In this document: one piece after another, positions 4,986 to 52,500 of the stretch | Numbering within the stretch: position 1 is the stretch's first letter | How the letters are laid out: each line of letters starts with the position of its first letter | Assembly: GCF_036365525.1 (NCBI RefSeq) | Contig: NC_090394.1 | Span: forward strand, 41,313,367-41,377,366 | DNA from: Heterodontus francisci | Lineage: Eukaryota | Direction of reading: 5' to 3' | Length of the DNA: 64,000 nucleotides | The notes under the pieces: generated by a model | Seen by the model: the letters and a program-made list of their open reading frames with translations, nothing else | Database searches by the model: none | What the model was told of the DNA's origin: nothing | Position numbers and translations under genes: made by a program

Positions 4986-5595
4986 ATCCACAGTAACAAT
5001 GCTGCCAGGATAAGAGAGATTATAGACTCAGGTGAATTCGGAACATGCGTGAAGACAGATCCAACAGGATACTGGGCATGTAAAATAGACCCAGAATTAT
5101 AAAGTGCACATATTTTCAACAGCCTTCTACATTTTTATTAGTGTCACTAAAATTTTTTTAACAATGGTAGATTCAAAGTAGATATGAGCTGGGATTTATG
5201 AGTGAAAATGTGGCGTACAGGATGAAGGAGTTTAATCAGAGTAGGCTAGGTTTTTTTATCCATTTCTGAGAGTCAAAGATTTTTTTAAAAAACGCTTGAG
5301 ATTTAAGCAATTATACTGTCAAAAAGCACATGGTGCAATCTGAGGTAATGATAAAGTTTCATGGTTCCAGGTGTAGACAGACCCAGAGAAATGGAGAGTT
5401 CAGAGATCTTCTGTTTGCTAATACAAGTTCCAACAGGAAGAGTTCCACGTTGACTGTTGCGGACCAAATTGGTATGGCTTGCTTTGCTGCTGCTACTATT
5501 GTGTATTAATCCAAAATGTCTGCACAAAGGCCAGGAAAAGGTAATTGGTCTAAGATGTATTATATTCTACATTGTCTCTCACTCTCTGGCACCCA

Positions 5596-5640
5596 GAGAG
5601 AGCGAGCGAGAGAGAGGCAGAGAGAGAGAGCGAGACAGAG
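5596..5640. repeat. Imperfect (GA)n microsatellite
   Basis: agagagagcgagcgagagagaggcagagagagagagcgagacagag. Confidence 0.85.
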
Positions 5641-5869
5641 TTGGAGCATCGTTTATTATTTTACTTAGATTGGTTTAAGTACAATAAAGCCAACCTCTTT
5701 CTTTGTTAAACTCAAGAAAACCTATCCGATTGGTTCTTATGATCATAGCACGTAAATACTTAAACACTCAATGAATTGGCAAGTATATCCACTTTAAAAA
5801 AAAACACAATCTTGTTGTGGTCAAACAAGGAGAGGGACAAGAGGGGAGCCCTTCGACCCCTCCTCACAG

Positions 5870-6830
5870 GTTTGTAACAGTCGTCACTGTTGTAATGTCG
5901 AAAATGCAGCAGCCGACTTGCACACAGCAAGCTCCCATAAAAAGCAACATCATAATGACCAGATAATGTTTCTTTGTGATATCGATTACGGGATAAATAT
6001 TGGCCAGGACACTGGCTAGTTCCCCTGCTCTTCGTTGAAATAGTGCCATGGGATTTTTACATCCACTTGAGAGGAGACAGGGCCTCAGTTTAATGACAGC
6101 AACTCTAAAGTACAGCACTCCCTCAATACCGCACTGGGAGTACAGCCTTGATATTTATGCTCAAGCCCTGGAGTGGAATGTGAGCCCACAACCTTCTGAC
6201 AATCTTTTTTTCCCTTTTTCTAATGCTGGTAGACCAGCTGTGTATTTCCAGCATTTTCTACATTTATTTCAGGTTTTCAACATTTCAAACCATTTCGGTC
6301 AAGGTCTTGCCAAAAGTCAGAGCTTGGGAAGCAGACAGCTTTTTACTTCAACTGCGCCATTAAGAACAAACGTGCATTGAAATAGTGCATTTCATAACCT
6401 CACGACAAGTCAAAGCACTTCAAAGCCAATGAAGTATTTTTGAAGTGCAGTTACTGTTGTAATCTAGGAAATATGGCAGCCAAACTCTCAATCATCAAAT
6501 GTGATACCAGATCTTTGAAAAGAATGTTGGTTGAGGGATAAATATGGCCAGGACACTAGGGAGATGGTGATGCAGCAAAACAAGGGAGGAAAGGCTTCAA
6601 TGGTGAATTCAAAAGGAATGCTGTATGCTGAGACAGAAAAAGCCTTTATTCAAGTAACACTTCATTTGTCAGGCAGCTTCACTTTTCAGGGTCTCCAATT
6701 CCCCTGCTCTTCCAAATAGTGCCATGGGATCTTTTACGTTCACCCAAGACAACAGACTGGGACCTTGATTTAAATTCTCATCTGAAAGCTAGCATAGCTT
6801 TCAACAGTGCACCAGTACTGTCAGAAGCTG
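5870..6830 (-). mobile_element. Cluster of Deu-domain SINE copies (SacSINE1-like)
   Basis: Reverse complement of taaaagatcccatggcactatt...gtcctggccaatatttatcc at ~5990-6060, ~6540 and ~6720. Confidence 0.75.
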
Positions 6831-7339: not shown

Positions 7340-8175
7340 TACTGTAGTGCAGCACTTCTGCTACTGGACTAGCAACCTAAAAGGAGAGTGTGTTCAATTT
7401 CCATTATGGCAAATTTTGAAACTGAATTCAATAAATCTTTATGGGGTAGTACTAAGAAAATGATCAAAGCTCCCAGACTATATAAAAACTTTACTAGTTC
7501 ATTAATGTACTTCAGAGAAGGAACCTGCCACCTCTACTGAATCTGGCCTACATTTGAAAAAAAAACTTGCATTTATATAGTACCTTTCACGACCTCAAGT
7601 CCCAAAGCACTTTACATCCAATGAAGTACTTTTGAAATGTAGTCACTGTTGTAATGTAGGAAACGTGGCAACCAATTTGTGCAGGCTCCCAAAAACATCA
7701 ATGTGTTAATAACCAGATAACCAGTTTTAGTGTTTGTTGAGAATAAATATTGGCCAGGACATCAGAAATAACTCCCTTGCTCTGCCTCAATAAAGTGCCA
7801 CGGGATCTTTTACGTTCATTTGAGGGCGGACAGGGGTTTAATGTCTCATCCAAAAGATGAGACCGCCGACAGAGCAGCACTTACTCAGTAATACACTGGA
7901 TCGTCAGCCTAGATCTTTGTGCTCAAGTCTCAGAAGTAGGACTTGAACCGGCAACCATCAGATTGAGAGAAAAAAGAAAATAGTGCTACCAACTGAGCCA
8001 CGGAAGGCACTTAACCCCAATCCCACAATATATGGTTCCCCCTTAATGCTCTCTGTGTAAAGCAATCACTACAGATTACATGGACTATAGTAGTTCAAGG
8101 CAACCTACCAGCATTTTAGGGAAACCAAGGATTGGCAATAAATGTGGCCTTGACAACGTTACCCAAACCCCCAAA
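7340..8175 (+). mobile_element. Old copy of the tRNA-headed SINE (family of 46583-47307), interrupted by a Deu SINE
   Basis: ctggactagcaacc head, gaattcaataaatc, gttcattaatgtacttcagagaaggaacctgcc body, ggcaataaatgtggcc tail. Confidence 0.6.
7560..8005 (-). mobile_element. Deu-domain SINE (SacSINE1-like)
   Basis: Same Deu core as ~5990-6130 with an L2-like tail (aacttgcatttatatag). Confidence 0.75.
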
Positions 8176-17789: not shown

Positions 17790-20700
17790 CTGGAAAGAAA
17801 AATGAAAACAAATATGTTGCTGTTGCAGTTCGGATCTCCAATCAACAGTGGTCCTCTTTACAGCTACAGAAATGAGACTTGTATTTATACAACATCCAAT
17901 ATTTTACATAAAGCATCTCAAAGCACTTCACATACATTGCATTACCATGAAATGAAACGACTGTTTGCAAATTACATGCTGTTTTCTTGCACGAGAGCAA
18001 GCTTCTACAAACGTGAAGATAAGAAATAGGAGCAGGGGTAGGCCATTCAGCCCTTTGAGCCTGATCCACCATTCATAAGATATTGCGGATCTGATTGTGG
18101 CCTTATCACTTTCCTGCCTGCCCCCCCATAACCCTCAACTCCGTTCTTAATCAAAAATCTGAATATGCTCAAGGCTGAGTTCCAATGACCCTACCTCCAC
18201 TGCTCACTGGGGAAGAGAATTCCAAGCACCAACAACCCAGAAAAGACGTTCCTCTTCAACTCAGTCTTAAATGGAAGACACCTTAATTTGAAACTGTGCC
18301 CTCAAGTTCTAGATTCCCCCACGAGGAGAAACATCCTCTCAGCATCCACCCCGTTAAGCCGCCTCAGAATCTATGTTTCAATAAGATCACCTCTCATTCG
18401 TCTAAACTTCAGTGAGTATAGGCCCAACCTGCTGAACCTTTCCTCATAAGACAAACCCTTCATCCCAGAAATCAGCCTAGTGAACTTTTTCTGAACTGCT
18501 TCCAATGAAATTAAATGAGCATTTAAAGAACTAATACATAGCTTACAACAATACATTCCTTTAATGCACAAAAACTCAGGAAGGAAAGTGCTCCAATTGT
18601 GGCTAAAGAAAGAAAGAGGACTGTATTAGATCAAAGGAAGCATATAAAGTTGTCAGAAAAAATGGTAAGCCTGAGGTTTGGAAGCAAAAAGGAGAACCAA
18701 GAAAAAGGGAAAATGGAATATGAGTAAGCTAGCTAGAAACATAAAAGTGGACTGCAAAAGCATATATGTAAAAAAGGAAAAAATTAGCAAAGGCAACTGT
18801 GGGTCCCTTACAAGCAGAGTCAGGAGAATTTAATGGGGAATAAGGAAATGGCAGAGAAACTAAAAAAATACAGTGGCTGTCTTGAGGAAAACACTAAAAA
18901 CCTCCCAGAAATAAATGGAGAATCAAGGGACCAGTATAAATGAGGAACTGCAAGTTTAGTAAAAACAAAAGTAGAAGAGAAATTAATGGGGCTTAAAATA
19001 GATAAATCCCCTGGACCTGATGATCTACATCCCAGAGTGTTGAAAGAGGTGGCTGTAGAGATAGATGCATTGCTGGTCATCTTTCAAGATTCTATAGACT
19101 CTGGAATGGTTCCTGCAGATTGGAAGGTGGCAATTGTAACCAATATTTAACAAAGGAGGGAGAGAGAAAACGAGGTACTACAGTCTTGTTAGTGTATCAA
19201 TTGTAGGGAAAATGCTAGAATCTATAATAAAGGATGGGATAACAGGACACGTAGAAAATAATGGTAGGATTGGGCAGAGTCAACATGGATTTACGAAAGG
19301 GAAATGTTTAACAAACCTGGAGTTTTTTTTTTGAGGATGTAACTCACAGAATAGATCAGGGGGAAACTGGTGGACATGGTATATTTAGATTTTCAGAAAG
19401 CTTTTGATAAAAGGTCCCACACAAGACACAATTGGAGCGTATGGAATGGGGGCAGGGAGAAATATACTGGCATGGATGGAGAACTGACTAAAGGACGGAA
19501 AACAGTAGGAATAAATGGGTCATTTTCAGGTTGGTAGGCTGACTAGTGGGGTACCACAAGGATCAGTGCTTGGGCCCCAGCTATTCACAATCATTAATTT
19601 GAATGTGGGGATTAAATGTAATATTTCCAAGTTTGCAGATGCAAAACTAAGGGGAAGTAACTTTTCTATGGTTCCAAGTGGGAGTTGTGAGGAGGATACG
19701 AAGACGCTTCAAAGAGATTTGGAGAGGCAAAGCCAGTGGGCAAAAATTTGGAATACCCTGTGGAGAAATGAGATGTTATCCACTTTGGTAGGAAAAACAA
19801 ATGCAGAGTATTTCTTAAATGGTGAGAGGCTGGGAAGTGTTGAACTTCAAAGGGACTTGGGTGTCCTTATTCATCAGTCACAGCAAGCAATGAAGGCAAA
19901 TGGTATGCTAGCCTTTATTACAAGAGGATTTGAGTAGAAGAGTAAAGATGTCTTACTGCAATTATATAGAGCGTTGGGGAGACTACATCTGGAGTCGTGT
20001 GTGCAGTTTTGGTCTCCTTACCCAAGGAAAGATGTACTTGCCATAGAGGGAATGCAACAAAGGTTCACCAAACTAGGTGATTGGTTAAGGAAGAAGCTAC
20101 CCATTTGGTGAGTATCTGGTAAGTGATTAAGGTCTATTCTAATCCTAACATTTAAAATAGTAAAGGAATGAGTGGGAAGCTTCAGAAAACATAAAAAAGG
20201 AAAATAAAATAAAATAATTTAGTTAATTAAAACACATTAAGGATGGTGGGGCAAGTGATGTGTCATAGCTGCAGCATGTGGGAGCTCCTGGATGCCAGTG
20301 TGATCCAAATCTGCAGTTCGAAGAGCGTCGGCTCAGAGTCATTGAACTGGAGGCCGAGCCGCAGATACCGCGGAGGGAGGGGGAAAAGTTACCTGGACAC
20401 GGGTACTAGGAGGCGGTCACGCCCTTAGAATAGGGTCTTCTGATTTGGTCAGTGGTCAGGGACAGGAGAGTGTGGCTGCAGCTGAGGCAGATAAGGGGAC
20501 CCAGAGGACAGGAGTGCAGGAGCCTCAGCCTTTGCGATTGTCCAACAGGTTTGAGGTTTTCAGCTTGTTTAGAGGAGAGTGGTGGCTTCAGGGTAGATGA
20601 GCAACCTGACCATAGCACCATGGTACAGGAAGCCATTCAAGTGGAGGGAGAAAAAAAGGAGGAATGTAGCAGTAGTAGACAAACAGTATAGTTCGGGGGA

Positions 20701-23700
20701 TTGACACGGTTCTCTGCAGCAAACAGAGAGTCCAGACGGCTGTATTGCCTACCCGGTACCAGGGTTCGGGTCATCTGCTCAGGGCTGGAGAGGAACAGTG
20801 GGAGAGGGAGGATCCAGTCGTCGTGGACCACGTAAATACCAACGATATAGGCAGGACAAGGAAAGAGGTTCTGCATAGTCAGTATGAGGAACTAGTCACC
20901 AAATTAAGCAAACCTCAAAAGGTAATCATCTCTGGATTACTAGCTGAGCCACATGCAAATTGGCATTGGACAAATAAGATTAGAGAAATTAATGCGTGGT
21001 TCAAAGACTGGTGTGGTTGAAGTGGGTTCTGGTTAGTGAGGCACTGGCACCAGTACCGGGGATAGTGGTGGCTGTACCGTTGGGATACTCTACACTTGAA
21101 CCATGCTGGGGCTGGTGTTCTAGCAATCCATAGAACGAGGGAAGCAGAGAGGGTTTAAAACTGAGTAGTGGGGGTAAGGGATCAAATTTGAGAAGATATG
21201 GTAAATTGAGTAGAGACAAGGCAAGACAGAAAGGTATTAATATGGGAAATGACAAACAGACTGACAGGAAGGTAAAATTGGAGTACGAGAGAAAGCTAGC
21301 TAGAAATATAAAGACAGTAAGAGGTTCTATAGATAATTTTTTAAAAAAAGTTACAAAAGTGAGCAATGGTCCTATAGAAAAGGAGTCTGGGGAATTAATA
21401 ATGGATGAGATGGCAGATGAATTGAACAGGTATTTTACATTGGTCTTCACTATAGAGGATACAAGTAATATCCCAGTATTAGCTGCAAGTCAGGAAATGG
21501 AAGGGAGGGAGGAATTCAAGAGAATTACAATCACCAGTTAAGTGGTACTAAACAAATTGTTGGAGCTGCCGGCTGATTAGTCCCCAGGTCCTGATGGACT
21601 TCATCCTAGGGTGTTAAAAGTAGTGGTTATTGAGATAGTTGATGCGTTAGTTTTAATTTTCCAAAATTCCCTAGATTCAGGGAAGGTTTTGTTAGATTGG
21701 AAAATAGCATATCTAACTCCTTTATTCAAAAAGGGAGGAGACAGAAAGCAGGAAACTACAGGCCAGTTAACTTAGCTTCTAACATTTTCCCTAAGACAGA
21801 TGTTAAAGATGTTATAGCAGGGCACTTAGAAAAATTCAAGGTAATCAGGCAGAGACAACATGGTTTTGTGAAAAGAAAATCATGTTTAATTTATTGGAGT
21901 TCTTTGAGGGAGTTACATGTGCTGTGGATGAAGGGGAACCAGTGGATGTATTGTACTTAGATTTCCAGAAGGCATTTAATAAGGTGCCACATCAAAAGAT
22001 ATTGCAGAAAATAAAAGCTCATTGTGTAGGGATAACATATTGGCATAGAGAGAAGATTGGCTAGCGAACAGGAAACTGCAAGTAGGCATAAATGGGTAAT
22101 TTTCTGGTTGGTAAGATGGAATGAGTGGTGTGCCACAGGGACCGGTGCTGGGGCCTCAACTTTTTACAATTTATATAAATGACTTTGATGAAGGGACTGA
22201 AGGTATGATTGCTAAATTTGCTGATGACACAAAGATAGGTAGGAAAGTAACTTATGAAGAGAACATAAGGAGGCTACAAAGGGATATAGATAGGTTGAGT
22301 GAGTGGGCAAAGATCTGGCAAATGGAGTATAACGTGGGAAAATGTGCAATTGTCCATTTTGGCAGGAACAACAAAGAAGCAAATTATCTAAATGATGAGA
22401 GATTGCAGAGCTCGGAGATGCAGAGGAATCTGGGCGTCCTTGTGCATGAATCGCAAAAGGTTAGTATGCAGGTACAGCACGTAATTAAGATAATAGAATG
22501 TTATCGTTTAGTGTGAGGGGAATTTAATATAAAAAGTAGGAGGTTATGCTTCAGCTATACATGGCATTGGCGAGACCACATCTGGAGTACTGTGTACAGT
22601 ACTGGTCTCCTTATTGAAGGAAGAATGTAAATGCGTTGGAGGCAGTACAGAGAAAGTTTACTAGACTAGTACCTGGAATGGGCAGGCTGTCTTAAGAGGA
22701 AAGATTGGACAGGCTAGGCTTGTATCCACTGGAATATAGAAGAGTAAGAGGCGACTTGATTGAAACATATAAAGATCCTGAGGGGTCTTGACAGGGTGGA
22801 TGTGGAAAGGATGTTTCCCCTTGTGGGAGAACCTAGAACTAGGGGTCACTGTTTAAAAATAAGGGGACGCCCATTTAAGACAGATGAGGAGAAATTTTTT
22901 CTGATGGTCATGAGTCTTTGGAATTTTCTTCCTCAAAAGGTGGTGGAAGCAGAGTCTTTGAATATTTAAGGCAGAGGTAGGTAGATTCTTGATAAGCAAG
23001 GGGGTGGAAGGTTATCAAGGGTGGGTGGAAATGTGGAGTAATCAGTTCAGCCAAAAACTTATTGAATGGCGGAGCAGCATACTCCTGCTCCTAATTTGTA
23101 TGTAACTAATTCCTGGGATGGAAGGATTATCCTGTGAGGGAAGATTAAATAGACTGGGCCTTTATTCTCTGGAGTTTAAAATAATAGAGGTGATCTAATT
23201 CAAACATATAAAAATCTTACAGGGCTCAAAGGGTTGATGCAGGAAGGATGTTTCCACTGGCTGGGGAGTATAGAACCAGGAGATAGTGTCTCAGAATAAA
23301 GGGCAGGCCATTTAGGGCTAAGACGAGGAGGAATTTCGTTACTCAGAGGGTGGTAAATCTTTGGAATTGTCTGACCCAGGAGGGCTGTGAAGGCTCAGTC
23401 GTTGAGTATATTCAAGACTGAGATCGATAGATTAATCCATATTAAAAATATCAAGGGATAGTGCAGGAAAATGGCATTGAAGTAGATCAGCCACGATCTC
23501 ATTGAATAGCAGAGCAGGCTCGAGGGCTGAATGGCCTACTCCTGCTCCTATTTATGTTCTTATGTATATCCGTCCTTAAATAAAGTGACCAAAACTGTAC
23601 ACAGTACTCTAGGTGCAGTCTCACCAATACCCTGTACAGTTGTAGCAAGACTTTGCTACTTTTTTTACTCCATCCCCCTTGCAATAAAGGCAAACAATTC

Positions 23701-26700: not shown

Positions 26701-29700
26701 ATCACTGACAGAACTCCCAACTGAAAATGTTCTTCCGGTAACAGTGCAGTGAAACATGAGCATTCTGTCATCTGCATTTAACAGAACACCCTCCAGTGAA
26801 CTGCAGGAACACCAAAATACAGAACTAGAAAAAAGTTCAATAAATTGCACCCAATGCTGTCTCAAACAATATCCTCACTGAAAAAAAAAAATCTATCCAA
26901 CTCCCTCTCGCATTTCCCCAAAACGTCTCACCCTGGGCAGTCCGCTCCACCTGTTCACTTTCCCTCTTCCGAGCTGGGGTCCATGGCCCGGCCACAGGGT
27001 TTGCGCTTTACTGGGGTTCAATTTATCCATACCACTTACAAATCAAAGCCTTCATTAAAAGATCGCCCCTGAGCTTTCTTTCCACCTGCGTCAACATTCC
27101 TGCTGGAAGCAAACATGCAGTGTTTTATTCACATTCAGCGTACACAAGGAAGGGTAGCGTCGGTAATGCAGAACACTGGATTTTGCTGGGTTCCCTATTT
27201 TAATTCCACCCTGCCCATTGCAGGGAGGGGGGACTGAATGCAGAAAAGAGGGCACAATTTCAAAATTGGAGTGTCTCCTGACAATGCAGAGCAATTACTG
27301 ATGTCATCAACGCATCCGAACATTTGCCAGTACGGGTCCGCCGCCGCACATGTGGGCGGCAATGTCACCACATAATGATATCAGACGCCGCCACCACCCA
27401 CCCCACCCCCATCACATGGTCACTGCCTCAACCACCACTTGTCTTCCCCACTCCCTCCCACTGTTGTCTCCTGTGCCCACTTCTCCATCCCGGTTCTTCA
27501 TAGCTCCATCCTGCTGTCCTCTTCCGCTCTTGACTGCTTGCTGCTCACTTCCCGACTTGTCCCCACCCCCCGCTTGACTGGGCAGCGGGGCAGGGAATGA
27601 ACAGCGGGAAGGAGGACCAAAGAGAAGCAGCAATTGAGAGTGAACAGGAAGCTGCAGCAATTGCAGGAGGGATTGGAGGTGGCAATTGCAGCCATTGAGG
27701 GGTGAGGGTTTGGTTCAATTAGTTTGTGTCAAATTGAGCAGCACTATCTTTATTACTGGCAGCTGCCTGAGACGTCACAGACAGTGATGTTTCAGTCAAT
27801 GAGGCTGCATTTGCACACGTGCCAGTATTGCGTCACCGAGTGGTGGCATTGTCAGCAAATTTTGAAAGGCTGTGTTTGCTAACGACACAAAACAAATATC
27901 GCGAACTGCGAGGATAGTGAGAGACATCAAGAGGACATCGTGGATTAGGTGGACGCACGGCAGATGAAATTTAATGTCGACATGCATGAAGTGATACATT
28001 TTGGTAGGAAAAACAAGGAGAGGCAATATAGAATAAAGGGTGCAATTCTAAAGGGGGTGCAGGAACAGAGGGACCTCGAAGTATGTGCACAAATTGTTGA
28101 AGGCAGCAGGGCAGGTAGAGAAAGCAGTTAATAAGGCATACAGGATCCTGGGTTTTATAAAAAGAGGCATACATAGAGTACAAAAACAAGGAGGTTTTGT
28201 GAATTTTTATAAAACATTGGGTTAGTCTCAACCGGAGTATTGCAACCAATGCTAGGTACCCAACTTTAGGAAGGATGTGAAGACATTGGACAGGGTGCAA
28301 AATAAGATTGGAGAATGGTTCCAGGGTTGAGGGACTTCAGTTATGTGGATAGATTGGAGAAGCTAGGACTATTTTCTCTTTTTTTAAATTCATTCATGGG
28401 GGTGGGCATCGCTGGCTAAGACAGCATTTATCGCCCATCCCCAATTGCCCTTGAAACGGTGGTGGTGAGCCACCTTCTTGAACGGCTGTAGTCCTTGTGG
28501 TGTAGGTACACCCACAGTGCTGTTAAGAAAAGAGTTCCAGGATTTTGACCCAGCGACAGTGAAGGAACGGCGATATAGTTCCAAGTCAAGATGGTGTGTG
28601 GCTTGCAGGTGGTGTTCCCATTCAACTGCTGCTCTTGTCCTTCTAGGTGGTAGAGCTCATGGTTTGGAAGGTGCTAAGGAGTCTTGGTGCATTGCAGCAG
28701 CGCATCTTGCAAATGGTACATACTGCTACCACTGCGCAGTGGCGGAGGGAGTGAATGTTTGTGGATGGGGTGCCAATCAAGTGGGCTGCTTTGTCCTGGA
28801 TGGTGTCGAGCTTCTTGTGTTGTTAGAGCTGCACCCATCCAGGCAAGTGGAGAGTATTCCATCACACTCCTGACTTGTGCCTTGTAGTTGGTGGACAGGT
28901 TTTGAGAGAGTCAAGGGGAGGTACTCGCCCCAGGATTCCAAGCCTCTGACCTGCTCTTGTAGCCATGGTATTTATATGGCTACCTCCAGTTCAGTTGCTG
29001 GTCAATGGTAACCCCCAGGATGTTGATACTGGGGAATTCAGCGATTGTAATGCCATTGAATGTCAAGGGGAGATGGTTAGATTCTCTCTTGTTGGAGATA
29101 GTCGTTGCCTGGTACTTGTGTGGCACAAATGTTACTTGCCACTTATCAGCCCAAGCCTGGATATTGTCCAGGTCTTGCTGCATTTCTACACGGACTGCTT
29201 CAGTATCTGAGTCGTTGCGAATGGTGCTGAACATTGCACAGTGAACATCCCCACTTCTGACTTTATGAAGGAAGGAAGGTCATTAATGAAGCAGCTGAAG
29301 ATGGTTGGGCCTAGGACACTACCCTGAGGAACCCCTCCAGCATCCTAGAGCTGAGATGATTGACCAACAACCACAACCATCATCTTTTGCGCTCGGTACG
29401 ATTCCAACCAGCGGAGAGTTCCCCCCTCCCTCAATTCCCCTTTGACTCCAGTTTTACTAGGGCTCCTTGATGCCATACTCAGTCAAATGCTGCCTTAATG
29501 TCAAGGGCAGACACTCTCACCTCTGGAGTTCAGCTCTTTTGTCCATGTTTGAGCCAAGGCTGTAATGAGCTCAGGAGCTGAGTGGCCCTGGAAGAACCCA
29601 AACTGAGCATCACTGAGCAGGTTATTGCTAAGCACGTGCCGCTTGATTGCACTGTTGACAATACCTTCCATCACTTCACCGATGATAGAGAGCAGAATGA

Positions 29701-32700
29701 TAAGGTGGTGATTGGCCAGGTTGGATTTGTCCTGCTTTTGTGGACAGGACGTACCTGGGCAATTTTCTACATTGCTGGGTAGATGCCAGTGTTGTAGCTG
29801 TACTGGAACAACTTGGCTATGCGCATGGTAAGTTCTGGAGCAGAAGTCTTCAGTACTATTGCCAGAATATTGTCAGGGGCCCATAGCCTTTGCAGTATCC
29901 AGTGCCTTCAGCCATTTCTGGATATCATGTGGAGTGAACTGTATTGGGTGAAGACTGGCATCTGTGATGCTGGGGACTTTAGGAGGAGGCCAAGTTGGAT
30001 CATCCATTCAGCACTTCTGGCTGAAGATTGTGCCTTGTCTGTTGCATTAATGTGCTGGGCTCCCCCATCATTGAGGATGGGGATATTTGTGGAACCACCT
30101 CCTCTAGTTAGTTGTTTAATTGTCCACCACCATTCACAACTGGATGTGGCAGGACTGCAGAGCTTAAATCTGATCCATGGATTGTGGGAATCGCTTAGCT
30201 GTGTTTGTCGCATGCTGCTTACACTGTTTGGCCCGCAATAGTCCTGGGTTGTAGCTTCACCAGTTTGATACCTCGTTTTGAGGTATGCCTAGTGCTGCTC
30301 CTGGCATGCCCTCCTGCATTCTTCATTGACCCAGGGTTGATTCCCCAGCTTGATGGCAATGATAGAGTGGGGAATATGCCCGGCCATGAGGTTAAAGATG
30401 GAGTACAATTCTGCTGCTGCCCCACAGCACCTCAGATACCCAGTTTTGAGTTGCTAGAACTGTTCGAAGTCTATCCCATTTAGCACAGTGGTCATGCCAC
30501 ACAACACGATGGAGGGCATCCTCAATATGAAGATGGGACTTCATCTCCACAAGGACGGTGTTGTGGTCACTCCTATCATGGACAGATGCATCTGCAACAG
30601 GCAGACTGGTGAGGACAAGGTCAAATATGTTTTTCCCTCACCACCTGCCATAGACCCAGTCTTGCAGCTATGTCTTTTAGGACTCAGCCAGCAGTCAGTA
30701 ATGGTGCTACCAAGCCACTCTTGGTGATGGACATTGAAGTCCCCCACCCAGTACATGCTGCACTCATCACCCTCAGGTGCTTCTTCCAAGTAGCGTTCAA
30801 CATGGAGGAGTGCTGATTCATCAGCTGAGGGGAGAGTGGTGGGTGGTTATCAGCAGGAGGTTTCCTTGCCCATGTTTGACCTGATGCCACAAGACTTCAT
30901 GGGGTCTCCCAGGGCAACTCCCTCCCAACTGTATACCACTGTGCTGCCACTTCTGCTGGGTCTGTCCTGCCAGTGGGACATGACATACCTGGGGATGGTG
31001 ATGGCAGTGTCTGGGACACTGAACTGTATTTTTTTCTCCTCTGTCTTAAAGGCACACTGCTTCAAACAGAGAGAGAAGTTTTAGATTTATGAGGCACAGT
31101 GTGCCAGCTGCAGTTGTTACCTAGGCAACAGAAGGAGTGAGGTCACATGGCATAATGTTTCAATTTATCTGTAAAAACCAGCTAATACCAGTTGAGACAC
31201 CAGCAAAGCATGCTTACTGAAGGAAAGAGCTGTCTATTTCTCAGCAGAAATTCTACAATAAGTCACAGGCTGTGTTAATTGCCGGAGGAAAAAACCCTTT
31301 GAAGAGATCATTTGTATTGCTAAAGGTAGCAAAACTCCTTTTCTTTACTTCCAAGAGTCTTGGCTTCAAGATTGACTCTCTTGACTGATTGTGTTTGCTG
31401 GAATTTTCAGTAAAGCTTTTACTAAAAGACTGCCGATTTTTAAAAATTCAAGTAGACCTATTGCTGTGCTCATCTTTGAAAGAACTGTTTGATGCCTGCA
31501 GCAGCCAGAATGTTTTGAATGCCTATCTGTTGAAGGAATGTTTCATCAAATCCATGTGGAGACTTAGAGTGCATTGGATATTTTGTTTTTACACGAAGAT
31601 ATCTCACTCATCAGAAACGTAACCCACAAAGACTAATAACGCAGTTATTTATTCTAAAGAAACAGCTTTTTTTTTTAAAACATTCTTTTTAAAAACCACT
31701 TAACCCTTGATTTGAATGAGAGAATGGGGGAGTTAGGTTAAAATACGAAGTTATAAGATCTTTAGACATGGGTTTATCTTAATAGTATTTAAGATTTAGT
31801 TTTTAATAAATAGTTAATCTGTTGTCTAAAGATACCTGGTTTGTCAGTTTTATATTGGAGTGTGGGGGTGGGGGTTTACTAGAGTGTTTAATTTGTCTGT
31901 TTTCCAGTTGGGTGGGGAAAAAAAAAAACACTTACTTAATATGCTGCGACCTGTGGACTGATGGGACTGAATTGACAGTGCGTTGCTCCCACCTTGGTTG
32001 TAACATCTGTAAAATATGATTTCGTGAGCATGACTACGTCAGGCTACTGCTTGACTAGTCTATGGGACAGCTCTCCCAACTTTGGCACAGGCCCCAAGAT
32101 GTTAGGAAGGAGGACTTTGCAGGGTCGACAGGGCTGAGTTTGCCATTGTCGTTTCCTGTGCCTTAGTCAATGCCGGATTGTCTGTCCGGTTTCATTCCTT
32201 ATTGACTTTGTGGTGCCGAGACACAACTGAGTGTCTTGCTAGGCCATTTTAAGAGTCAACCACATTGCTTTGGGTCTGGTGTCACATGTCGGCCAGACCA
32301 GGTAAGGGCATCAGATTTCCTTCCCTAAAAAAGGACATTAGTGAACCAGACAGGTTTTTACAACAATCGACAATGTTTTCATGGCCACCATTAGACTAGC
32401 TTTTAATTCCAGATTTATTAATTGAATTCAGATTCCATCTTCTGCCGTGGTGGGATTCAAAGCCATGTCCCCAGAGCATTACCCTGGGTCTCTGGGTTAC
32501 TAGTCCAGTGACAATACCATAACACTACCGTCTCCTCACTAATGGCTGTTGCAACCAAAAGTTTGGCCAGGGTTTAACAGAAAAACAGGATAAAAGCACA
32601 GAATGAGAGAATATAGAACACCTGTTTAGTCTGGCAAAATACCCACTCTCATGGACTTTGACTAGTTAGATGTCAACTGTGGACACCAGTAGAAGAAAAG

Positions 32701-35700
32701 GTAGTCCGGCATAGGATAGAGAGAGGGGTCAGGCTGTGCCAATGCATGTAACCCTGACCAGTGGTCAGCTTTCCTCCCAGCAGACCCCCACAACACCACC
32801 CCAACCACCAAGGCATGGGCCCCACAGGCAGCCACAAGCAAGACGGCAGAGAGTCACCGCAGTCAGTCAGCGAGTCTCCTGGGTGGCCAATCCTGTTGAG
32901 TCTCAGCAGATCCACACTTTGCTCGTGTGGCTGGCTGTGCAAGATGGTGACAGCAACACAGTATAAAAACTCGTAGTATGACATGGAGATAATTAATTTT
33001 TGCTTGCTTCCTAAAAAGGGAGAGACAGTCAATTGAAGTTTTGTTAGGGATGGGAGTCAAGGGATATGGAGCAAAGGTGGTAAAAATGGAGTCGAATTAC
33101 AGATGAGTGACAGTGTGATTGAATGGCAGAATGGCCTCCCCCCATTCCATACAAGGGTGGGGGTTCATGGGGCTGAACAGCCACCAGATCAGGTGTTACC
33201 CAATGCTGATTATTGTAAATAAGGTGCTTACCTTTTGCCTACATAGAGGTTCCTTTTTGGGCTCTTCAGCTTTGGCCTCTTGCTGTACTACCTCTTTTGG
33301 CGTGTTTACGGCTAGAACGTCATTAATTGTTGATCCAATTACCATTATCTTTGCACCATTTGTGACTTTAATTTCACGTAAGGTTTTATCTTCTTGGAGC
33401 AGTCCCTTGTACATGACCTTTTGCATAGCAGGAGTGAGACCTGACAAACAAAAGTGTTGATCTTAGACCAGTCCTTGAAAAATCAGATTAAATGTACATC
33501 ACTACTGGGGCCAGTGACACGGATCAGCGCCTGCGATAGGTTATGCAAATGAGAGAACCAATTTGAAATCTCTCCCCCACTCCCTACATCCTTTTTCCTC
33601 TAGTAGGAGATGGTCCAGAGACCTCTTGCTGTGAAACTGCATAATTAGAAAGTACACAAGAAGGCAGAGTACCTCTCCCTTCCTGACAGAACAGATCAAG
33701 AACCCATTGCTTTGGAGGAGTGACAGTGGGTGGTGGGGGCAAGGGAGAATGACAGCTGTAGATCAGCACACCCAGATACACATGGGCTGCCATCTGTGGC
33801 TGCGTACAATACTTAAATAAACTCGAACAGCAATTTTTTTCCCCTCCTGAAGGCACTGACTCCTGCTGGATCAAGTACACTAAAGCTGGCAGTCACTCCA
33901 ATATCACACTTAAAGAATCTATAATTACAGTCACCCTACATGTACAGTATGGGCTAGATACAAAATAAAGCTCCTTCCACACCACTCCAAACACTTCCAG
34001 GACGGGTATAGCATGGGCTAGAGAGAGTAAAGAACTCCTACACCATTCCATCAAACACTTCCAGAACAGCTATAGCACAGGTTAGATACTGAGCTCCCTC
34101 GATTCTTCAGTGTCAGAACAATCCCTCCACCACTAATATTTCCATTTCCCTGAAAAGGTCTTCAAGTGAGAACATAGAAAATTAATACAAAACTTTGCCA
34201 TTTTGCACTGTACCTTTGTGCCAACATCTGGACTGTTACTGTTCCAATCTTTCAGGTCACAGAAAAAATTCTCTTCAGCCCATGGTGCTGGACTGGATTC
34301 AAGCAAGAGTGACAAAAACACCAATTTATATAGTGCCAATCAAACTTCAACTAACAGTTCAGCATGTAGAAATCCAACTGGTTCAGTAGTTCTTAGAGTG
34401 GAGGAGAGAGAAGACTACACAGGTGTCAGGGAAAAGCAAAGGAACAGAAATGCTGCAAAACCAGTTTCCTGCCATTCAAGGGGAGTTCTTTCCACATTCA
34501 CAAAATATGTACCGTTCTTAAATCCAGTAGGGAATTCAGGAGAAACTTCTTTACCCAGAGTTTATCCAACCTCTCCTCATAGCTAATGTCCTCCAGACCA
34601 GGCAACATCCTGGTAAACCTCTTCTGTACCTTCTCCAAAGCCTCCACGTCCTTCTGATTAGTAAATTTGCGGACGACACAAAGGTTGGTGGAGTTGCGGA
34701 CAGTGATGAGGATTGTCAGAGGATACAGCAGGATATAGATCGGTTGGAGACTTGGGCGGAGAAATGGCAGATGGAGTTTAATCTGGACAAATGTGAGGTA
34801 ATGCATTTTGGAAGGTCTAATGCAGGTGGGAAGTATACAGTAAATGGCAGAACCCTTAGGAGTATTGACAGGCAGAGAGATCTGGGCGTACAGATCCACA
34901 GGTCACAGAAAGTGGCAACGCAGGTGGATAAGGTAGTCAAGGCATACGGCATGCTTGCCTTCATCGGTTGGGGAATAGGCAAGTCATGTTGCAGCTGTAC
35001 AGAACCTTAGTTAGGCCACACTTAGAATATTGCGTGCAATTCTGGTCACCACACTACCAGAAGGACGTGGAGGCTTTGGAGAGGGTACAGAGGAGGTTTA
35101 CCAGGATGTTGCCTGGTCTGGAGGGCATTAGCTATGAGGAGAGGTTGGATAAACTCGGATTGTTTTCACTGGAACGACGGAGGTGGAGGGGCGACATGAT
35201 AGAGGTTTACAAAGTTATAAGCGGCATGGACAGAGTGGATAGTCAGAAGCTTTTTCCCAGGGTGGAAGAGTCAGTTACTAGGGAACATAGGTTTAAGGTG
35301 AGAGGGGCAAAGTTTAGAGGGGATGTGCGAGGCAAGTTCTTTACACAGAGGGTGGTGAGTGCCTGGAACTTGCTGCCGGGGGAGGTGGTGGAAGCAGGTA
35401 CCATAGAGACGTTTAAGAGGCATCTTGACAAATACATGAATAGGATGGGAATAGAGGGATACGGACCCTGGAAGTGCAGAAGGTTTTAGTTTAGGCAGGC
35501 CTCAAGATCGGCACAGGCTTGGAGGGCCGAATGGCCCATTCCTGTGCTGTACTGTTCTTTGTTCAGAGTGGCGAGAATGTGGGGCTCATTACTATATGGA
35601 GTGTTTGACGCAAATAGCATAGGTGCCTTTAAAGGGAAGCTAGACAAGCACAAGGGAGAAGGAAATAGAAGATGCTGATTGAGTGAGATGAAGTAGGGTG

Positions 35701-44592: not shown

Positions 44593-45712
44593 CTCGCACC
44601 CACACTTTTTGGGATTTTCTTCTCCCTGCTGCTTTCACATGCGTTCAAGTCTTCTGAAGAAGGAATTTTCCTCCACACAAGATCAGGGGGCAGGTTATTC
44701 AACCTTGCCCGTCTAAGAGCGAAGTCCAAAGTACGGAAAGTCCTCATCAGGGAACTCCTCTTTGCTGACGATGCTGCTTTAACATCTCACACTGAAGAGT
44801 GCCTGCAGAGTCTCATCGACAGGTTTGCGGCTGCCTGCAATGAATTTGGCCTAACCATCAGCCTCAAGAAAACGAACATCATGGGGTAGGACGTCTGAAA
44901 TGCTCCATCCATCAATATTGGCGACCACGCTCTGGAGGTGGTTCAAGAGTTCACCTACCTAGGCTCAACTATCACCAGTAACCTGTCTCTAGATGCAGAA
45001 ATCAACAAGCGCATGGGAAAGGCTTCCACTGCTATGTCCAGACTGGCCAAGAGAGTGTGGGAAGATGGCGCACTGACACGGAGCACAAAAGTCCGAGTGT
45101 TTCAAGCCTGTGTCCTCAGTACCTTGCTCTATGGCAGCGAGGCCTGGACAACGTATGTCAGCCAAGAGCGACGTCTCAATTCATTCCATCTTCGCTGCCT
45201 CCGGAGAATACTTGGCATCAGGTGGCAGGACCGTATCTCCAACACAGAAGTCCTCGAGGCGGCCAACATCCCCAGCTTATACACACTACTGAGTCAGCGG
45301 CACTTGAGGTGGCTTTGCCATGTGAGCCGCATGGAAGATGGCAGGATCCCCAAGGACACATTGTACAGCGAGCTCGCCACTGGTATCAGACCCACCGGCC
45401 GTCCATGTCTCCGCTTTAAAGACGTCTGCAAACGCAACATGAAGTCCTGTGACATTGATCACAAGTCGAGGGAGTCAGTTGCCAGCGTTCGCCAGAGCTG
45501 GCGGGCAGCCATAAAAGTGGGGCTAAAGTGTGGCGAGTCGCAGAGACTTAGCAGTTGGCAGGAAAAAAGACAAACAAATTTTTCTGCAGCACCTGTGGAA
45601 GAGCCTGTCACTCTAGAATTGGCCTTTATAGCCACTCCAGGCTCTGCTCCACATACCACTGACCACCTCCAGGTGCTTACCCATTGTCTCTCGAGATAAG
45701 GAGGCCAAAGAA
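44593..45712 (+). mobile_element. RTE-clade LINE, 5'-truncated
   Basis: ELLFADDAAL, FTYLGSTI, STLLYGSEAWT, RRLNSFHLRCLRRILGIRWQD; ORF 44938-45699. Confidence 0.92.
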
Positions 45713-45714
45713 AG

Positions 45715-46582: not shown

Positions 46583-47307
46583 TTTTTTTTATTCGTTCAT
46601 GTCTAGGCCAGCATTTATTGCCCATCCCTAATTGCCCTTGAACTAAGGGTTCAGTGGTTAGCACCGCAGCCTCACAGCTCCAGCAACCCGGGTTCAATTC
46701 TGGGTACTGCCTGTGTGGAGTTTGCAAGTTCTCCCTGTGTCTGCGTGGGTTTCCTCCGGGTGCTCCGGTTTCCTCCCACATGCCAAAGACTTGCAGGTTG
46801 ATAGGTAAATTGGCCATTAGCAATTGCCCCTAGTATAGGTAGGTGGTAGGGAAAATATAGGGACAGGTGGGGATGTGGTAGGAATATGGAATTAGTGTAG
46901 GATTAGTATAAATGGGTGGTTGATGGTCGGCACAGACTCGGTGGGTCGAAGGGCCTGTTTCAGTGCTGTATCTCTAAACTAAACTAAACTAAGTGCTTGC
47001 TAGGCCATTTCAGAGGGCATTTAAGAGTCAACCACATCGCCGTGGGTCTGGAGTCACATGTAGGCCAGACCAGGTGAGGACAGCAGATTTCCTTCCCTAA
47101 TGGACATTAGTGAACCAGATGGTCAATGATACAATTGACAAGGGTTTCATGGTCACCATTAGACTAGCTTTTTAATTCCAGATTTATTAATTGAATTCAA
47201 ATTTCACCATCTGCCATGGTGGGATTCGAACCCATGTCCCCAGAGTATTAGCCTGGGCCTCTGCATGGCTAGTCCAGTGACATTACCATCAAACCACCAC
47301 TTCCCCC
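46583..47307 (-). mobile_element. tRNA-headed SINE sharing both head and tail with the LINE at 28381-32536
   Basis: A box-like tggtttgatgg, B box gggttcgaatccc, shared ~300-bp body, joined directly to caagggcaattagggatgggcaataaatgctggcc. Confidence 0.85.
46648..46986 (+). mobile_element. HE1-like V-SINE inserted in the above SINE
   Basis: V-domain tgtgtggagtttgcaagttctccctgtgtctgcgtgggtttcctccgggtgctccggtttcctcccaca; (taaac)n tail; TSD aactaag at 46641-46647 and 46987-46993. Confidence 0.9.
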
Positions 47308-47317
47308 TTCCTTGCTT

Positions 47318-48592
47318 TTCTTTTGGCCTCCTTGTCTCAAGAGACAATGGGTAAGCATCTAGAGGTGGTCAGTGGTTTGTGGAGCATCGCCTGGAGTGGC
47401 TATAAAGACCAATTCTAGAGTGACAGACTCTTCCACAGGTGCTGCAGGTAAAGTTGGTTGTCGGGGCAGTTACACAGTTGGCTCTCTCCTTACACTGCTG
47501 TTTCTTTTCCTGCCAACTACTGAGTCTCTTCGACTCGCCTCTCTTCAGCCCTGCCTTTATAGCTGTCCGCCAGCTCTGGCGATCGCTGGCAACTGGCTCC
47601 TACGACTTGTGGTCAATGTTGCAAGACTTCATGTTGCGTTTGCAAAAGTCTTCAAAGCGGAGACATGGACAGCCGGTGGGTCGGATACCAGTGACAAGCT
47701 CGCTGTACAATACGTCTTTGGGGATCCCGCCATCTTCCATGCAGCTCACATAGCCAAGCTATCTCAAGCGCTGCTGGCTCAGTAGGGCTGGGGATGTTGG
47801 CTGCCTCGAGGACTTCTGCATCGGAGATACGGCCCTGCCACTTGATGCCAAGGATTCTCCGAAGGCAGTGAAGGTGGAATGCGTTGAGACGTCGCTCTTG
47901 GCTGACATACGTTGTCCAGGCTTTGCTGCCGTAGAGCAAAGTATTGAGGACACAGGCTTGAAATACTCGGACTTTTGTGTTCCGTGTCAGTGCGCCATTT
48001 TCCCACACCCTCTTGGCCAGTCTGGACATAGCAGCAGACGCCTTTCCCATGCGCTTGTTGATTTCTGCATCGAGAGACAGGTTGCTGGTGATGGTTGAGC
48101 CTCGGTAGGTGAATTCTTGAACTACTTCCAGAGTGTGGTCACTGATATTGATGGATGGAGCATTTCTGACATCCTGTCCCATAATGTTCGTTTTCTTGAA
48201 ACTGATGGTTATGCCAAATTCGTTGCAGAGAGCCGTAAGCTTGTCGATGAGTCTCTGCAGACACTCTTCTGTGTGAGATGTTAATGCAGCATCGTCAGCA
48301 AAGAGGAGTTCCCTGATGAGGACTTTCCGTACTTTGGTCTTCGCTCTAAGACGGGCAAGGCTGAACAACCTGCCATCTGATCTTGTGTGGAGGAAAATTC
48401 CTTCTTCTGAAGACTTAAACGCATGAGAGAGCAACAGTGAGAAGAAGATCCCAAACAGTGTGGGTGCGAGAACACAGCCCTGTTTCACATCACTCAGGAT
48501 GGGAAAGGAGTCTGATGAGGCACTGTTATGCTGAATTATGCTTTCATATTGTCATGGGATGAGGTGATGATGCTTAGTAGCTTTGGTGGACA
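47318..48592 (-). mobile_element. RTE-clade LINE, 5'-truncated, same family as 44593-45712
   Basis: KQGCVLAPTLFGIFF...RELLFADDAAL; ORF 47652-48488. Confidence 0.92.
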
Positions 48593-49069
48593 TTCCCCTG
48601 TTCATTATATATTTGACCATATTCATTTTCAGTCTCCCCCACTCACCATCTATCCACTACTCACTGTTCCTCTCCTGCTAACTGCCTGTGTCCCCTTAAC
48701 CTGCACTTGCCTGGATGAGTGCAGCTCTAATGAACACTCAAGCAGTTCGACACCATCGAGGACAAAGCTTGATCGGAAGGCTAAATGTGTCTGTCTGCTA
48801 GGGAGAAGAATTAACCAAGAATTAACTCCTGATGACTATCCTGTAACCCCACACCTGCTGAGAAATGCATATCGATATCAGGTGAGGAAACGAATAGGGA
48901 TAGGCTGTGATGACTCTCACAGTCGAATATTGTGCGATATACCTAGTCTCATTCATGGAGACATGGGTGAGGTGCTGGAGGGTGTCTGCTGCTCCTTCTC
49001 CAGTAAGGAGCCAGAGAGGCTGTGGGAAAGCAATCAGAAGAGAACAAAGTTTCTGCTGCCAGGGTGATT

Positions 49070-49501: not shown

Positions 49502-52500
49502 GTGAGTTTTCACCCAGTTTAATGAAGTATAACGGCAGCGAGTACTAGTGCCACAGGATCCAGGATTAAAATAGTTTGGAGGCTGGAAATCTGAAATGAA
49601 GTTAGAAATACTCAGCAGGTCTGGCAGCATCTGTGGAGAGAGAAACAAAAGTTAAAGTTGCAGGTCGAGAACTGGGAGTGCTTTGGGATCTAGTGGTTTT
49701 TAAACAAGGCAGGAGAGGAGGAAAGAACAAACTGGAAGGTCTGATACGGTGGAAGGCAGGAGAAATTAAGTGACAAAAGGGATGATGGTACAAGGCAAAA
49801 AGAGGTGATGGGAACAGAGGATGTGTAAATGGGCAAAGTAGAATCACCGCTGTCCAAAAAACAAAGAGCAGAGGTTATGGTCTGAAGATGTTGGTAAATG
49901 GGCAGATGTTGCATTTCCTGCACTTGCATGGGAAGTTACTGTGGGAAAGGGGGTCTGTTGGGAGTGATTGAGGAGTGGACCAGGGTGTTCTAGAGGCAAT
50001 GGTTGGTTCAGAAGGCTGAAAGGGGAGTGGAGGGGAAGATGTGTTTGGTGTTGGCATCACACTAGAGGTGGGAGAAATGTTAAAGTAACATTGTTTGAGT
50101 TAAAGTGGCATTGTATTGTTTAAAGTGGCACTTTAGCAGCTAAAGTAAGGATTCAACTAGTTTACAGTGTCCCAGGGTGATAGTAACAGTTTACTGGGGT
50201 AAGGTTGTGTTGTATAAGAGTCACTGCAAGGTGTGAAAGGGCTGTGACAACCAGTATCACTGCCCTCAATCAATATCCAGTGACAACCTCTGGAAAGTAC
50301 ACGTGTGGAGATCTTAGGTGAGGACGGAATCAGACTTTGATGTGATGCCCTCCACAGTCGAGCAATCTCCTGACACTCACTGTCCGACTCACTTGTAAGG
50401 AATGCCACTTGGGTGAAGTACTGGAGGAGCAACAGCAAGGGTTCAACTGGAGATGAGGGGAGAAAACCACAGAAGGGAAATTAGACCTTGCAGGAGAAAC
50501 AAATAATTGGCGACTGTTACTATTTACTCATCAACTCTCAGCATGTGATCCCTTGTCTAGGGCACAAACAGAAACTCTGTTCTTCAAATAACTTTATCTC
50601 CCACCAGCAACCCATGATCATGACATCATTTGAACAGGAGTCACAGGGCCCAGCTCTATTAAACTCTCTGTTTGGAACCATAATATGTTTACAGCACAGA
50701 GCAAGCTATTCAGCTTATCATATCTGTGCTGGCTCTTTGGTCAAGCAATCCAACACTAATCACATTGCCCCACTCTGTCACTATAGCCCTGCATCTTCAA
50801 AACTCTTCATAGTTTTATAAACCTCAATAAATCACCCCTTAGTCTTCTCTGCTCCAATACAGATTGTTCCAGCAACTCAAGTCTCTCCTCATAACTATAA
50901 CACACAGCACTCCAACTCTGGCCTAAAGGGCATTTGGACAGATTTATTATTAATTCTTTACTCGTGGACTTCTTTAATCTCTCTCTTTCCTTCACTGTGT
51001 GAAAGCTGCTGTATAGATTCACCAGGATGATTCTAGGAATGAGAAGTTGAGTTACAATGAGTGAGCTGAAATCTAAGTCTGTATTCAAAGGAGTGGAGAA
51101 GGTTAAGTGGAGGGCTAACAACAGTATTCTGGGAAAGCTTGAAAGTAAATAGTGAAACATTAATTCTATTGGTCGATGACAAGAAGTCATAAAGTTAGGA
51201 TTAATACTAGAACTTTCAACCCTCTGGCTTGTTCCACCATTCAATCAGATAATAGCTTAGTTTGAAATAGTCACTCAGAAGAACCATACTGAATGTCAGT
51301 ACTGTTGAAGGAAAAAAGGTCAGTCTGGCTATGTGGGTACCACTCTTGCCTCTGAGTCAGATCATAGGTTCGAGTCATAGGAACATAGGTACAGGAGCAG
51401 GCCATTTAGTCCCTCGAGCCTGTTCTGTCATTCAATGAGATCTGTGACCTAACTCCATATCCCTTAATACCTTTGGCGAACAAATATCTGTCAATCTCAG
51501 TTTTAAAATTGACAATTGGTCTACCATCAATTGCCGTTTGTGGAAGAGAGTTCCAAACTTCTTCTACCCCTTTGCATGAAGGAGTGCTTCCTAATTTCAC
51601 TCCTGAAAGATCTGGCTCTAACGTTTAGGCTAAGACCCCGAGTCCTAGACTCCCCAACTAGCGGAAATAGTTTCTCCCAATCTATCATACATACTTAGTT
51701 TGTTTAATCCCTCCTCATTGCTTAACCCTTGGAGTATTGTATACAGTTCTGGGTGCTGCACTTTGGGAAAGATATGAGGGCATTGGAGAGTGCAGAAAAG
51801 ATTCAGGAGAATGTTTCCAGGGATGATGAACTTCAGTTATGCAGATAGATTGGAGAAGTTGGGACTGTTGGAGAAGAGAAGGCTGAGAGGTGATTTGATA
51901 GAGGTGTTCAAAATCATGAAGGGTCTGGACAGAGTAGATAGAGAGAAATTGTTCCCACTTGTAAAAGGATTGAGAACGAGAGGGCGCAGATTTAAAGTAA
52001 TGGGTAAGCGAAGCAAAAGTGACATGAGGAAAAACTTTTTCATGCAGCAAGTGGTTAAGGTCTGGAATTCGCTGCCTGAGAACGTGGTGGAGGCAGGTTC
52101 AATTGAAGCATTCAAAAGGGAATTGGACTGTTATCTGAAAAGGAAGAATGTGCAAGGTTATGGGGAGAAGGCAGGGGAGTGGCATGAAGTGAATTGTTTG
52201 TTCGGAGAGCCGGTGCAGACACGATGGACCGAATGGCCGTGTCCTGTGCTGTAACAATTCTGTGGGATGTCATTCTCGTGAATTTACACTGCAATCCTTC
52301 CAAGGCCAATACATCCATCCTAAGGTATGGTGCCCAAAACTGCTCACAATATTCCAGGTGTAGTCTAACCAGGGCTTTGTACAGCTGAAGTATGACTTCT
52401 ACCCTTTTGTATTCTAGTCTCTTGATATAAAGGTCAGCATTTTATTAGTCTTTTTGATTATTTTCTGTACCTGTTCATTTCATTTTAATGATCTGTGTAC

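Follow-up and report, generated by a model that had tools for sequence, protein, structure and literature searches.

The 64,000-nucleotide, repeat-rich stretch of Heterodontus francisci DNA analysed here (contig NC_090394.1; hereafter the window) carries on its minus strand, at 28379..32537, a decayed full-length long interspersed nuclear element (LINE) that starts with a tRNA-like head and leads, through a conserved non-coding body, into an endonuclease-reverse transcriptase open reading frame (ORF). Judged from its sequence, the element is a member of the elasmobranch Zenon family, and the junction between head, body and ORF is family-wide. The promoter boxes of the head are conserved and the coding strand is poor in runs of T. 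We regard it as fairly probable, on this sequence evidence, that RNA polymerase III (Pol III) copies the whole elasmobranch Zenon into RNA from its tRNA-type head.

Structure of the long element

A preliminary description, made from the letters of the window, had placed a LINE at about 28381..32536. Its position stands; its length of 4.15 kb included a 987-bp insertion that had been overlooked, and the copy without this insertion measures 3166 bp (~3.17 kb), as compared to published Zenon lengths of 2886-3314 nt. Re-reading the minus strand recovered the claimed order of hairpin, B-box remnant, body, endonuclease, reverse transcriptase (RT) and tail. The head (32445..32537) comprises a decayed A box (32527-32517), the anticodon-like hairpin CTGGA-CTAGTAA-CCCAG (32508-32492), a second hairpin and a decayed B box (32463-32453). 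The body (32225..32444), common to a short element found elsewhere in the window, is not a Deu domain; in the long copy, about 10 bp of it are missing at 32249. Its size was first given as ~300 bp, a figure that suits head plus body (~310 bp) and not the body alone (~220 bp).

A 106-bp spacer (32119..32224), with an Arg-rich N-terminal stretch in the endonuclease frame, separates the body from the start of the apurinic/apyrimidinic endonuclease (APE; 32006..32118). The 37 amino acids encoded there are 38% identical to residues 24-60 of P0054, a 967-residue APE-RT protein (E 2e-8); the same piece had no significant match to P0023 and, taken alone, none in Pfam, and a 54-residue endonuclease piece found no match in the protein search. 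On the other side of the insertion lie the endonuclease remainder, a linker, the RT and the C-terminus (28450..31018). Endonuclease and RT are both present as described, although numerous stops and frameshifts interrupt the ORF. The 3′ tail (28379..28455), common to the short elements, ends in a run of seven A (28385-28379), a poly-A tail as expected for Zenon and short as in an old copy; the hairpin predicted in this tail was no better than in shuffles (z -1.32). Only 419 bases separate the head start from the endonuclease and no ORF upstream exceeds 27 codons, so that, as had been claimed, there is no room for an ORF1 and the copy has the single APE-RT ORF of a Zenon. No tandem repeats were found within 28000-33500.

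Among the proteins matched by the RT piece, those of Scyliorhinus torazame and Heptranchias perlo reached 67-72% and others up to 80%; a whale-shark protein was matched too. These matches by themselves make a shark host very likely; there was no full-length shark ORF among the matches returned. RT pieces are also contained in three predicted shark proteins, P0004, P0007 and P0027 (cystathionine beta-synthase-like, anoctamin-7-like and one other), probably as annotation artefacts or exonised copies. In a tree of 66 RT rows, the window piece grouped with shark protein P0002 (100/100) within a 26-row group (98/94) that includes a moth protein and excludes the two other CR1-like copies of the window; the tree holds no row named Zenon.

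The head-body-ORF junction is a family trait

Stuart et al. 2026 (PMC13343379) described Zenon LINEs from elasmobranchs, coelacanth and hagfish; none of them has an ORF1, and all have poly-A tails. According to this source, shark Zenons are absent from repeat databases, the elasmobranch consensuses are more than 84% alike, and the family makes up 0.7-6.8% of five elasmobranch genomes and 0.02% of that of the elephant shark (Table S4). No full-length copy among the elasmobranch Zenons published there carries an ORF1. The layout of an ORF1-less, tRNA-headed LINE is real; the missing ORF1, a standard Zenon trait, is nothing new.

The first 400 nt of each published consensus (PMC13343379, Table S2) were examined. 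Head, body, junction and spacer open all seven elasmobranch consensuses, which come from five species: great white (CarCar_Zenon-1), whale shark (RhiTyp_Zenon-1), catshark (ScyCan_Zenon-1), spiny dogfish (SquAca_Zenon-1, -2 and -3) and Atlantic stingray (HypSab_Zenon-1). By eye, the long copy follows CarCar_Zenon-1 in the same order over these 400 nt. These elements also have the single APE-RT ORF and A tail of the window copy, at ~3.3 kb; the window copy differs in being dead and in carrying an insertion. The head-body start was found in none of three Zenons from hagfish (n=2) and coelacanth (n=1). Six 10-mers of the B box, searched in the first 400 nt of ~1,003 CR1-group consensuses, gave 6 matches, all in elasmobranch Zenons. 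In the window, an 18-nt motif taken from the junction in the published consensus matched once, at 32222-32239, with 2 mismatches; a match at up to 3 mismatches arose in 8 of 100 shuffles.

Reads and contigs of four runs, among them the raw run X21, were aligned to 30840-32640 at 80% likeness. In X21, depth was ~2250-4100 over the head, 4000-6700 over the body, 5300-6600 over the spacer and endonuclease start and 3000-3950 over the later endonuclease, and fell to 0.2 past 32547. A dip to ~1860 in the junction bin reflects the long copy itself, which lacks ~10 bp at 32249 and diverges at 32201-32221. There, clipping at 32200 affects 1907 reads, whose continuations form a single sequence (agreement 0.9) closing with the final letters of the body; 510 reads align over 32217-32218, 489 of them with a letter unlike the tail of the short element. 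Among the 24 contig pieces listed, two span 32225 with at least 31 letters on each side, one from organism B and one from organism D, and the runs they come from have zero depth on the flank of the long copy. Loose ends past 32519 have 18 letters in common and then disagree (0.51-0.61), which identifies the head as the 5′ end of the family. In the raw reads this 5′ end is about as deep as the interior, a measure sensitive to the local divergence of the long copy. The depth pattern suggests little 5′ truncation or many deleted forms that retain the 5′ end, either being unusual for the CR1 group.

The insertion (approximately 31019..32005) splits the endonuclease. In the raw reads, 505 and 327 reads skip it and its depth is 7-530, versus 3000-6700 on either side; it is a later arrival, foreign to the Zenon element. 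It is almost without reads in organisms B and D and appears as a lower-copy repeat in organism A only. On the plus strand it has long terminal repeat (LTR)-like features: an end TGTAACA and an AATAAA near 31806, ~200 bp before the end.

The window holds a single long copy, without a target-site duplication around it (the longest word common to both flanks has 4 bases), as would be seen if a SINE (short interspersed nuclear element) had landed beside a truncated LINE, or recombined with it, at this locus only. The preliminary description had itself raised this doubt. Such an accident is virtually ruled out by the recurrence of the junction in seven of seven consensuses and in the contigs of another two organisms, and by the lack of any SINE tail between body and ORF. 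Since the Zenons of hagfish, coelacanth and moths have no such head, the head was gained on the elasmobranch LINE lineage, presumably before sharks and rays split.

The family and its consensuses are thus already in print, and the head is printed there as sequence and left without remark: the words tRNA, promoter and polymerase III do not occur in the main text of PMC13343379, SINE occurs once, in a reference title, and the word tRNA is absent from the readable part of the supplement; the paper describes no matching short element. New here are the A box, whose variation is confined to free positions in seven of seven consensuses, and the avoidance of T runs on the coding strand.

tRNA likeness and promoter boxes of the head

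The A-box consensus of tRNA genes is TRGCNNARYGG. Inspected by eye, the A box fits this consensus in all seven elasmobranch Zenons and varies only at R and NN, with the letters preceding it variable; the B box is whole in six, that of the stingray being one base short. The element starts at the point where a tRNA gene would start. ARAGORN calls a tRNA in the head of the short element, whose B box (47232-47222) is intact and the sole exact GGTTCRAATCC in the window; at up to 2 mismatches the motif occurs 29 times, as expected by chance (28.9). Rfam scored the short head as tRNA below threshold (20 bits against a cut-off of 29, E 0.26) and returned nothing for the long copy; at gathering level it gave 0 matches over the whole window. 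Neither head folds better than its shuffles (z -0.27 and -0.23), nor do any of the heads, body or tails. The tRNA-derived head of the preliminary description has the ARAGORN call and the exact B box of the short copy in its favour, with a sub-threshold Rfam score on the other side. In 37 metagenome loci of distant relatives, many of them partial, ARAGORN found no tRNA and blastn no match to head or tail. Taken together, box conservation and the T-run avoidance described below lend indirect support to a promoter role of the head.

T runs are scarce on the coding strand

Oligo(dT) on the coding strand is the stop signal of Pol III (PMC10498592); a LINE made by Pol III should therefore be without T runs. 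This was examined in 21 in-frame segments of the long copy (704 codons; 2112 of 2571 bases). Upon synonymous permutation, runs of three or more T numbered 6 versus 12.4-12.5 expected (2 of 2000 permutations as low, and 0 of 2000 with a second seed), and runs of four or more 0 versus 3.1 (51 and 43 of 2000). When third positions were drawn anew, the expected numbers rose to 18.3 for three or more T (0 of 2000 as low) and 4.7 for four or more (9 of 2000). Runs of A, C and G were at expectation in the same codons. The 2629-bp 3′ piece gave a similar picture for three or more T: 9 versus 22.2 in letter shuffles (0 of 300) and 14.8 in dinucleotide shuffles (4 of 300); for four or more, it had 1 versus 4.7 (10 of 300) and 2.5 (83 of 300).

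Other elements served for comparison. Other LINE copies in the window (19 stretches, 2334 codons) contain 33 runs of four or more T where 33.4 were expected; per kb, the Zenon copy has 3.8 runs of three or more, versus 10.5-16.7 in eight other LINE segments of the window. Further controls were drawn from the 37 metagenome loci, 34 of which have an ORF of at least 150 amino acids and 17 one of at least 500, the latter used in the codon test. Runs of four or more T stood at 0.82-1.47 of expectation in 16 of these 17, and none of the 34 ORFs had a ratio of observed to expected runs of three or more T as low as the 0.41 of Zenon. In the first 400 nt, by eye, runs of four or more T are absent from all seven headed consensuses and present in all three head-less ones. 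Two such runs of the long copy, at 32332 and 32014, are specific to it and contradicted by the reads of the family. Since the other LINE copies and most controls show no such avoidance, Pol III transcription of a coding LINE is favoured.

Low phenylalanine content was considered as the cause and rejected: the shark pieces contain 1.8-3.5% Phe, P0023 and P0054 are alike in this respect, and the deficit survives the nulls in which the protein is fixed. The CR1-like LINE copies of the window that were used as controls are of different ages and lie at 56535-59422, 21248-23103, 53830-55737, 18626-20074 and 52316-53340; the first spans the endonuclease to the 3′ end.

A model for transcription and mobility

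In the model we favour, TFIIIC would bind the A and B boxes and Pol III would start at the first base of the element, read through the terminator-free ORF and finish at a downstream T run. Translation of the uncapped RNA would proceed without an AUG, likely aided by the body; the protein would bind the shared 3′ tail and the RNA would be inserted by target-primed reverse transcription. The head-body module would have been joined once to a head-less Zenon, before the shark/ray split and probably by template switching, and the short elements would be non-autonomous partners using the same promoter and tail. RNAs made by Pol III were found to retrotranspose without ORF1 (Kroutter et al., PMC2666806).

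Several points weigh against this model. To our knowledge, an uncapped, coding Pol III RNA of 3.3 kb would be exceptional. The head-less Zenons lack ORF1 too, so that loss of ORF1 is no pointer to Pol III. The tRNA origin of the head stays below the Rfam threshold. The codon test covers one decayed copy, over 2112 of 2571 bases; one control element only (L003/L004) falls in the same RT tree group, and a T-poor control, L021, likewise has 0 runs of four or more T, versus 1.5 expected. Over the whole copy, the 3 runs of four or more T do not differ significantly from the 6.3 of letter shuffles (34 of 300) or the 3.4 of dinucleotide shuffles (164 of 300), and the comparison with family reads covers two of the three, the remaining one lying at 28531.

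The last count would suit a head that merely fixes the 5′ end of an element whose long RNA is made by RNA polymerase II (Pol II), T runs being avoided for other reasons, for instance to keep out splice or polyadenylation signals. LINEs are generally taken as Pol II units (PMC5786205), a capped RNA would make translation ordinary, and in moths both Zenon and the derivative formed from it by deletion function with no Pol III promoter (PMC6740152). Nevertheless, T runs are not avoided in the other LINE copies of this genome, variation of the A box is limited to free positions in an element that starts at the tRNA-gene start point, and a ribosome scanning a capped RNA would meet 14 upstream ATGs, all closing before the endonuclease. 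On balance, we consider Pol II synthesis somewhat unlikely.

Labour could also be split, Pol III RNA serving as the template and the protein coming from Pol II RNAs made by host read-through or by a head-less master. Box conservation and T-run avoidance would then be explained without translation of an uncapped RNA, and near-full-length copies with an intact ORF are indeed few (0 of 2313, 1 of 1419, 3 of 612 and 1 of 294 in the rows of Table S3, PMC13343379). In sharks and a ray alike, however, ORF and head have been retained together, at more than 84% likeness, which fits selection in cis instead; there is no head-less Zenon among the seven elasmobranch consensuses, and length changes between a conserved GCT downstream of the body and the ORF are, by eye, multiples of three in five of the seven. 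This arrangement thus appears quite improbable, and Pol III transcription of the coding element remains the preferred reading.

How translation of the ORF might start

None of the 14 ATGs that lie upstream of the insertion stays open beyond 27 codons; every one closes before the endonuclease, and the spacer has no AUG leading into the ORF. The sequence ATG-GCC-TAG at 32247, read through, was considered as the general start and discarded: it is in the endonuclease frame in the long copy and, by eye, in only three of seven consensuses, and a further in-frame stop follows right past the body in Squalus and in the reads of organism A. An ATG at 32195, conserved by eye in six of seven consensuses, opens a frame (32195-32060) that overlaps the endonuclease start in a different frame; a frameshift from there into the endonuclease frame is conceivable.

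The last hairpin of the body, TGGC-CTAGCAA-GCCA, is whole in six of seven consensuses and recurs among the loose ends of each of the four runs. Some 10 nt beyond the body, GCTA is found by eye in all seven consensuses and in the reads of organism A, with variable letters around it. The GCT within it shares the frame of the endonuclease in five of the seven; SquAca-1 and SquAca-2 are the exceptions, and for SquAca-3 the agreement extends only as far as a gap. The stretch after GCT differs by exactly three bases in the whale shark. UAGC in the 7-nt loop of the hairpin could pair with the four bases GCUA downstream. Pseudoknot I of dicistroviruses has a stem, an anticodon-like loop, a variable loop and a codon mimic (PMC3517527), a layout that we propose for Zenon as well, and Luke et al. 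(PMC3894237) noted that, if non-LTR elements had internal ribosome entry sites (IRESs) of this kind, ORF2 would have to be thought about afresh. The anticodon-like hairpin and the in-frame GCT thus hint at IRES-type initiation. On the other side, the pairing is invariant and hence without covariation, it is mutated in both window copies, and folding did not recover it; Rfam gave no IRES match at E up to 5 for the short or the long copy, the intergenic-region IRES of dicistroviruses included. Accordingly, an autonomous coding Zenon made by Pol III end to end, whose uncapped RNA would be started by a tRNA-mimic IRES (an AGC loop with GCTA ~20 nt downstream) that sets the frame of an AUG-less ORF, seems to us an unlikely combination. 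Such a Zenon would be a LINE serving as its own SINE and making up as much as ~7% of shark genomes.

Short elements with the same head, body and tail

The short element lies on the minus strand at 46583..47307 and, as the preliminary description had it, has the same head, body and tail as the LINE: head and body match those of the long copy at 82.3% over 317 bp (E 1e-86), and 43 bp of the tail do so at 88%. The direct splice claimed between body and tail needs amending. The same tail is joined, but the junction is occupied by a 346-bp nested SINE on the plus strand (46648..46993) with AACTAAG at both ends, which we take to be of the HE1/V-SINE type; a twin at 2007-2326 is 88.6% identical, the two being copies of a 330-bp SINE with a TAAAC-type tail. 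When empty, the element measures 379 bp. Its A box, decayed in the window copy, is whole in the reads of the family. The flanks offer only an A-rich 8-mer as a possible target duplication.

With a tRNA-like head bearing A and B boxes, a length below 500 bp, no coding capacity and a tail common to a LINE, the element is a candidate tRNA-derived SINE; consisting only of the 5′ and 3′ ends of the LINE, it likewise has the make-up of a short internally deleted element (SIDE) of Zenon. An older relative on the plus strand (7340..8175), already described, is real, with ~70-76% identity in pieces; its body ends at the same place and joins the 3′ end of the LINE ~45 bp further upstream, and it holds a nested Deu-type SINE on the minus strand (~7558-8005). 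The 64 kb thus contain one copy with the junction of the short element and one older copy with a different junction; scans of viral contigs gave 0 matches. In the reads, the body is 5-7 fold deeper than the spacer in organisms B and D and ~1 fold in organism A.

The two short forms have the same 5′ break point and different 3′ break points. Such a pattern would be expected from a SINE module that already existed as well as from two successive deletions. The preliminary description had offered two origins, a LINE that captured a SINE head or a SINE born by internal deletion of the LINE. The two are not mutually exclusive: the LINE lineage gained the head, and the short element may be its donor or a later internal deletion.

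Near the short element, an inverted pair of LINE fragments (44593-45713 and 47317-48470; 85% over 1162 bp) flanks it on both sides, and a 68-bp fragment of a Zenon ORF lies at 48701-48768.

Relation to known elements

The lepidopteran Zenon and its partner Persaeus (PMC6740152) are a close parallel: the LINE is likewise ORF1-less and ~3.3 kb long, and the short partner is made of its 5′ and 3′ ends. Persaeus differs in that it lacks both a Pol III promoter and any homology to tRNA, 5S or 7SL. In the bipartite SINEs Bov-tA, AfroSINE and CoeSINE4 (Kojima 2018, PMC5786205) the body is common to the 5′ region of a LINE and the tail to its 3′ end; there, in contrast, only the SINE carries a tRNA head, and RTE and Vingi were the sole body donors found. 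SacSINE1 and the Deu-SINEs (PMC5499810, PMC4824008) also include a tRNA-headed shark SINE with a conserved body, whose partner LINE, unlike that of the short element, is given as L2-2_CM (PMC5499810). Identity of the short element with these was rejected, the Deu motif (PMC7245038 supplement) being absent from the bodies proper of the long and the short element. The motif does occur in the window at 6043, 6719 and 7795 on the minus strand and at 43282 on the plus strand, versus 0.13 expected; these are likely SacSINE1-type copies, one of them nested in the older short element.

One review loosely gives non-LTR elements a promoter of Pol II "or pol III". Among titles and abstract openings in open PubMed Central and bioRxiv, with subscription journals, Repbase and Dfam outside the search, neither a tRNA-headed or Pol III-made autonomous LINE nor the short element was found. 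If true, Pol III synthesis of Zenon would break the basic rule by which coding LINEs are transcribed by Pol II and non-coding SINEs by Pol III. It would provide a natural multi-kilobase coding Pol III RNA in a family covering 0.7-6.8% of the five elasmobranch genomes. It would bear on the AUG-less start of LINE ORF2 proteins, on a possible dependence of the ORF1 requirement on the polymerase, and on the origin of conserved SINE bodies, that of Zenon perhaps being the translation element of the LINE.

Another feature of the window

Two 99-bp arms at 34558-34656 and 35058-35156, 400 bp apart, form an inverted repeat of 97% identity, possibly a twin-primed or inverted LINE insertion.

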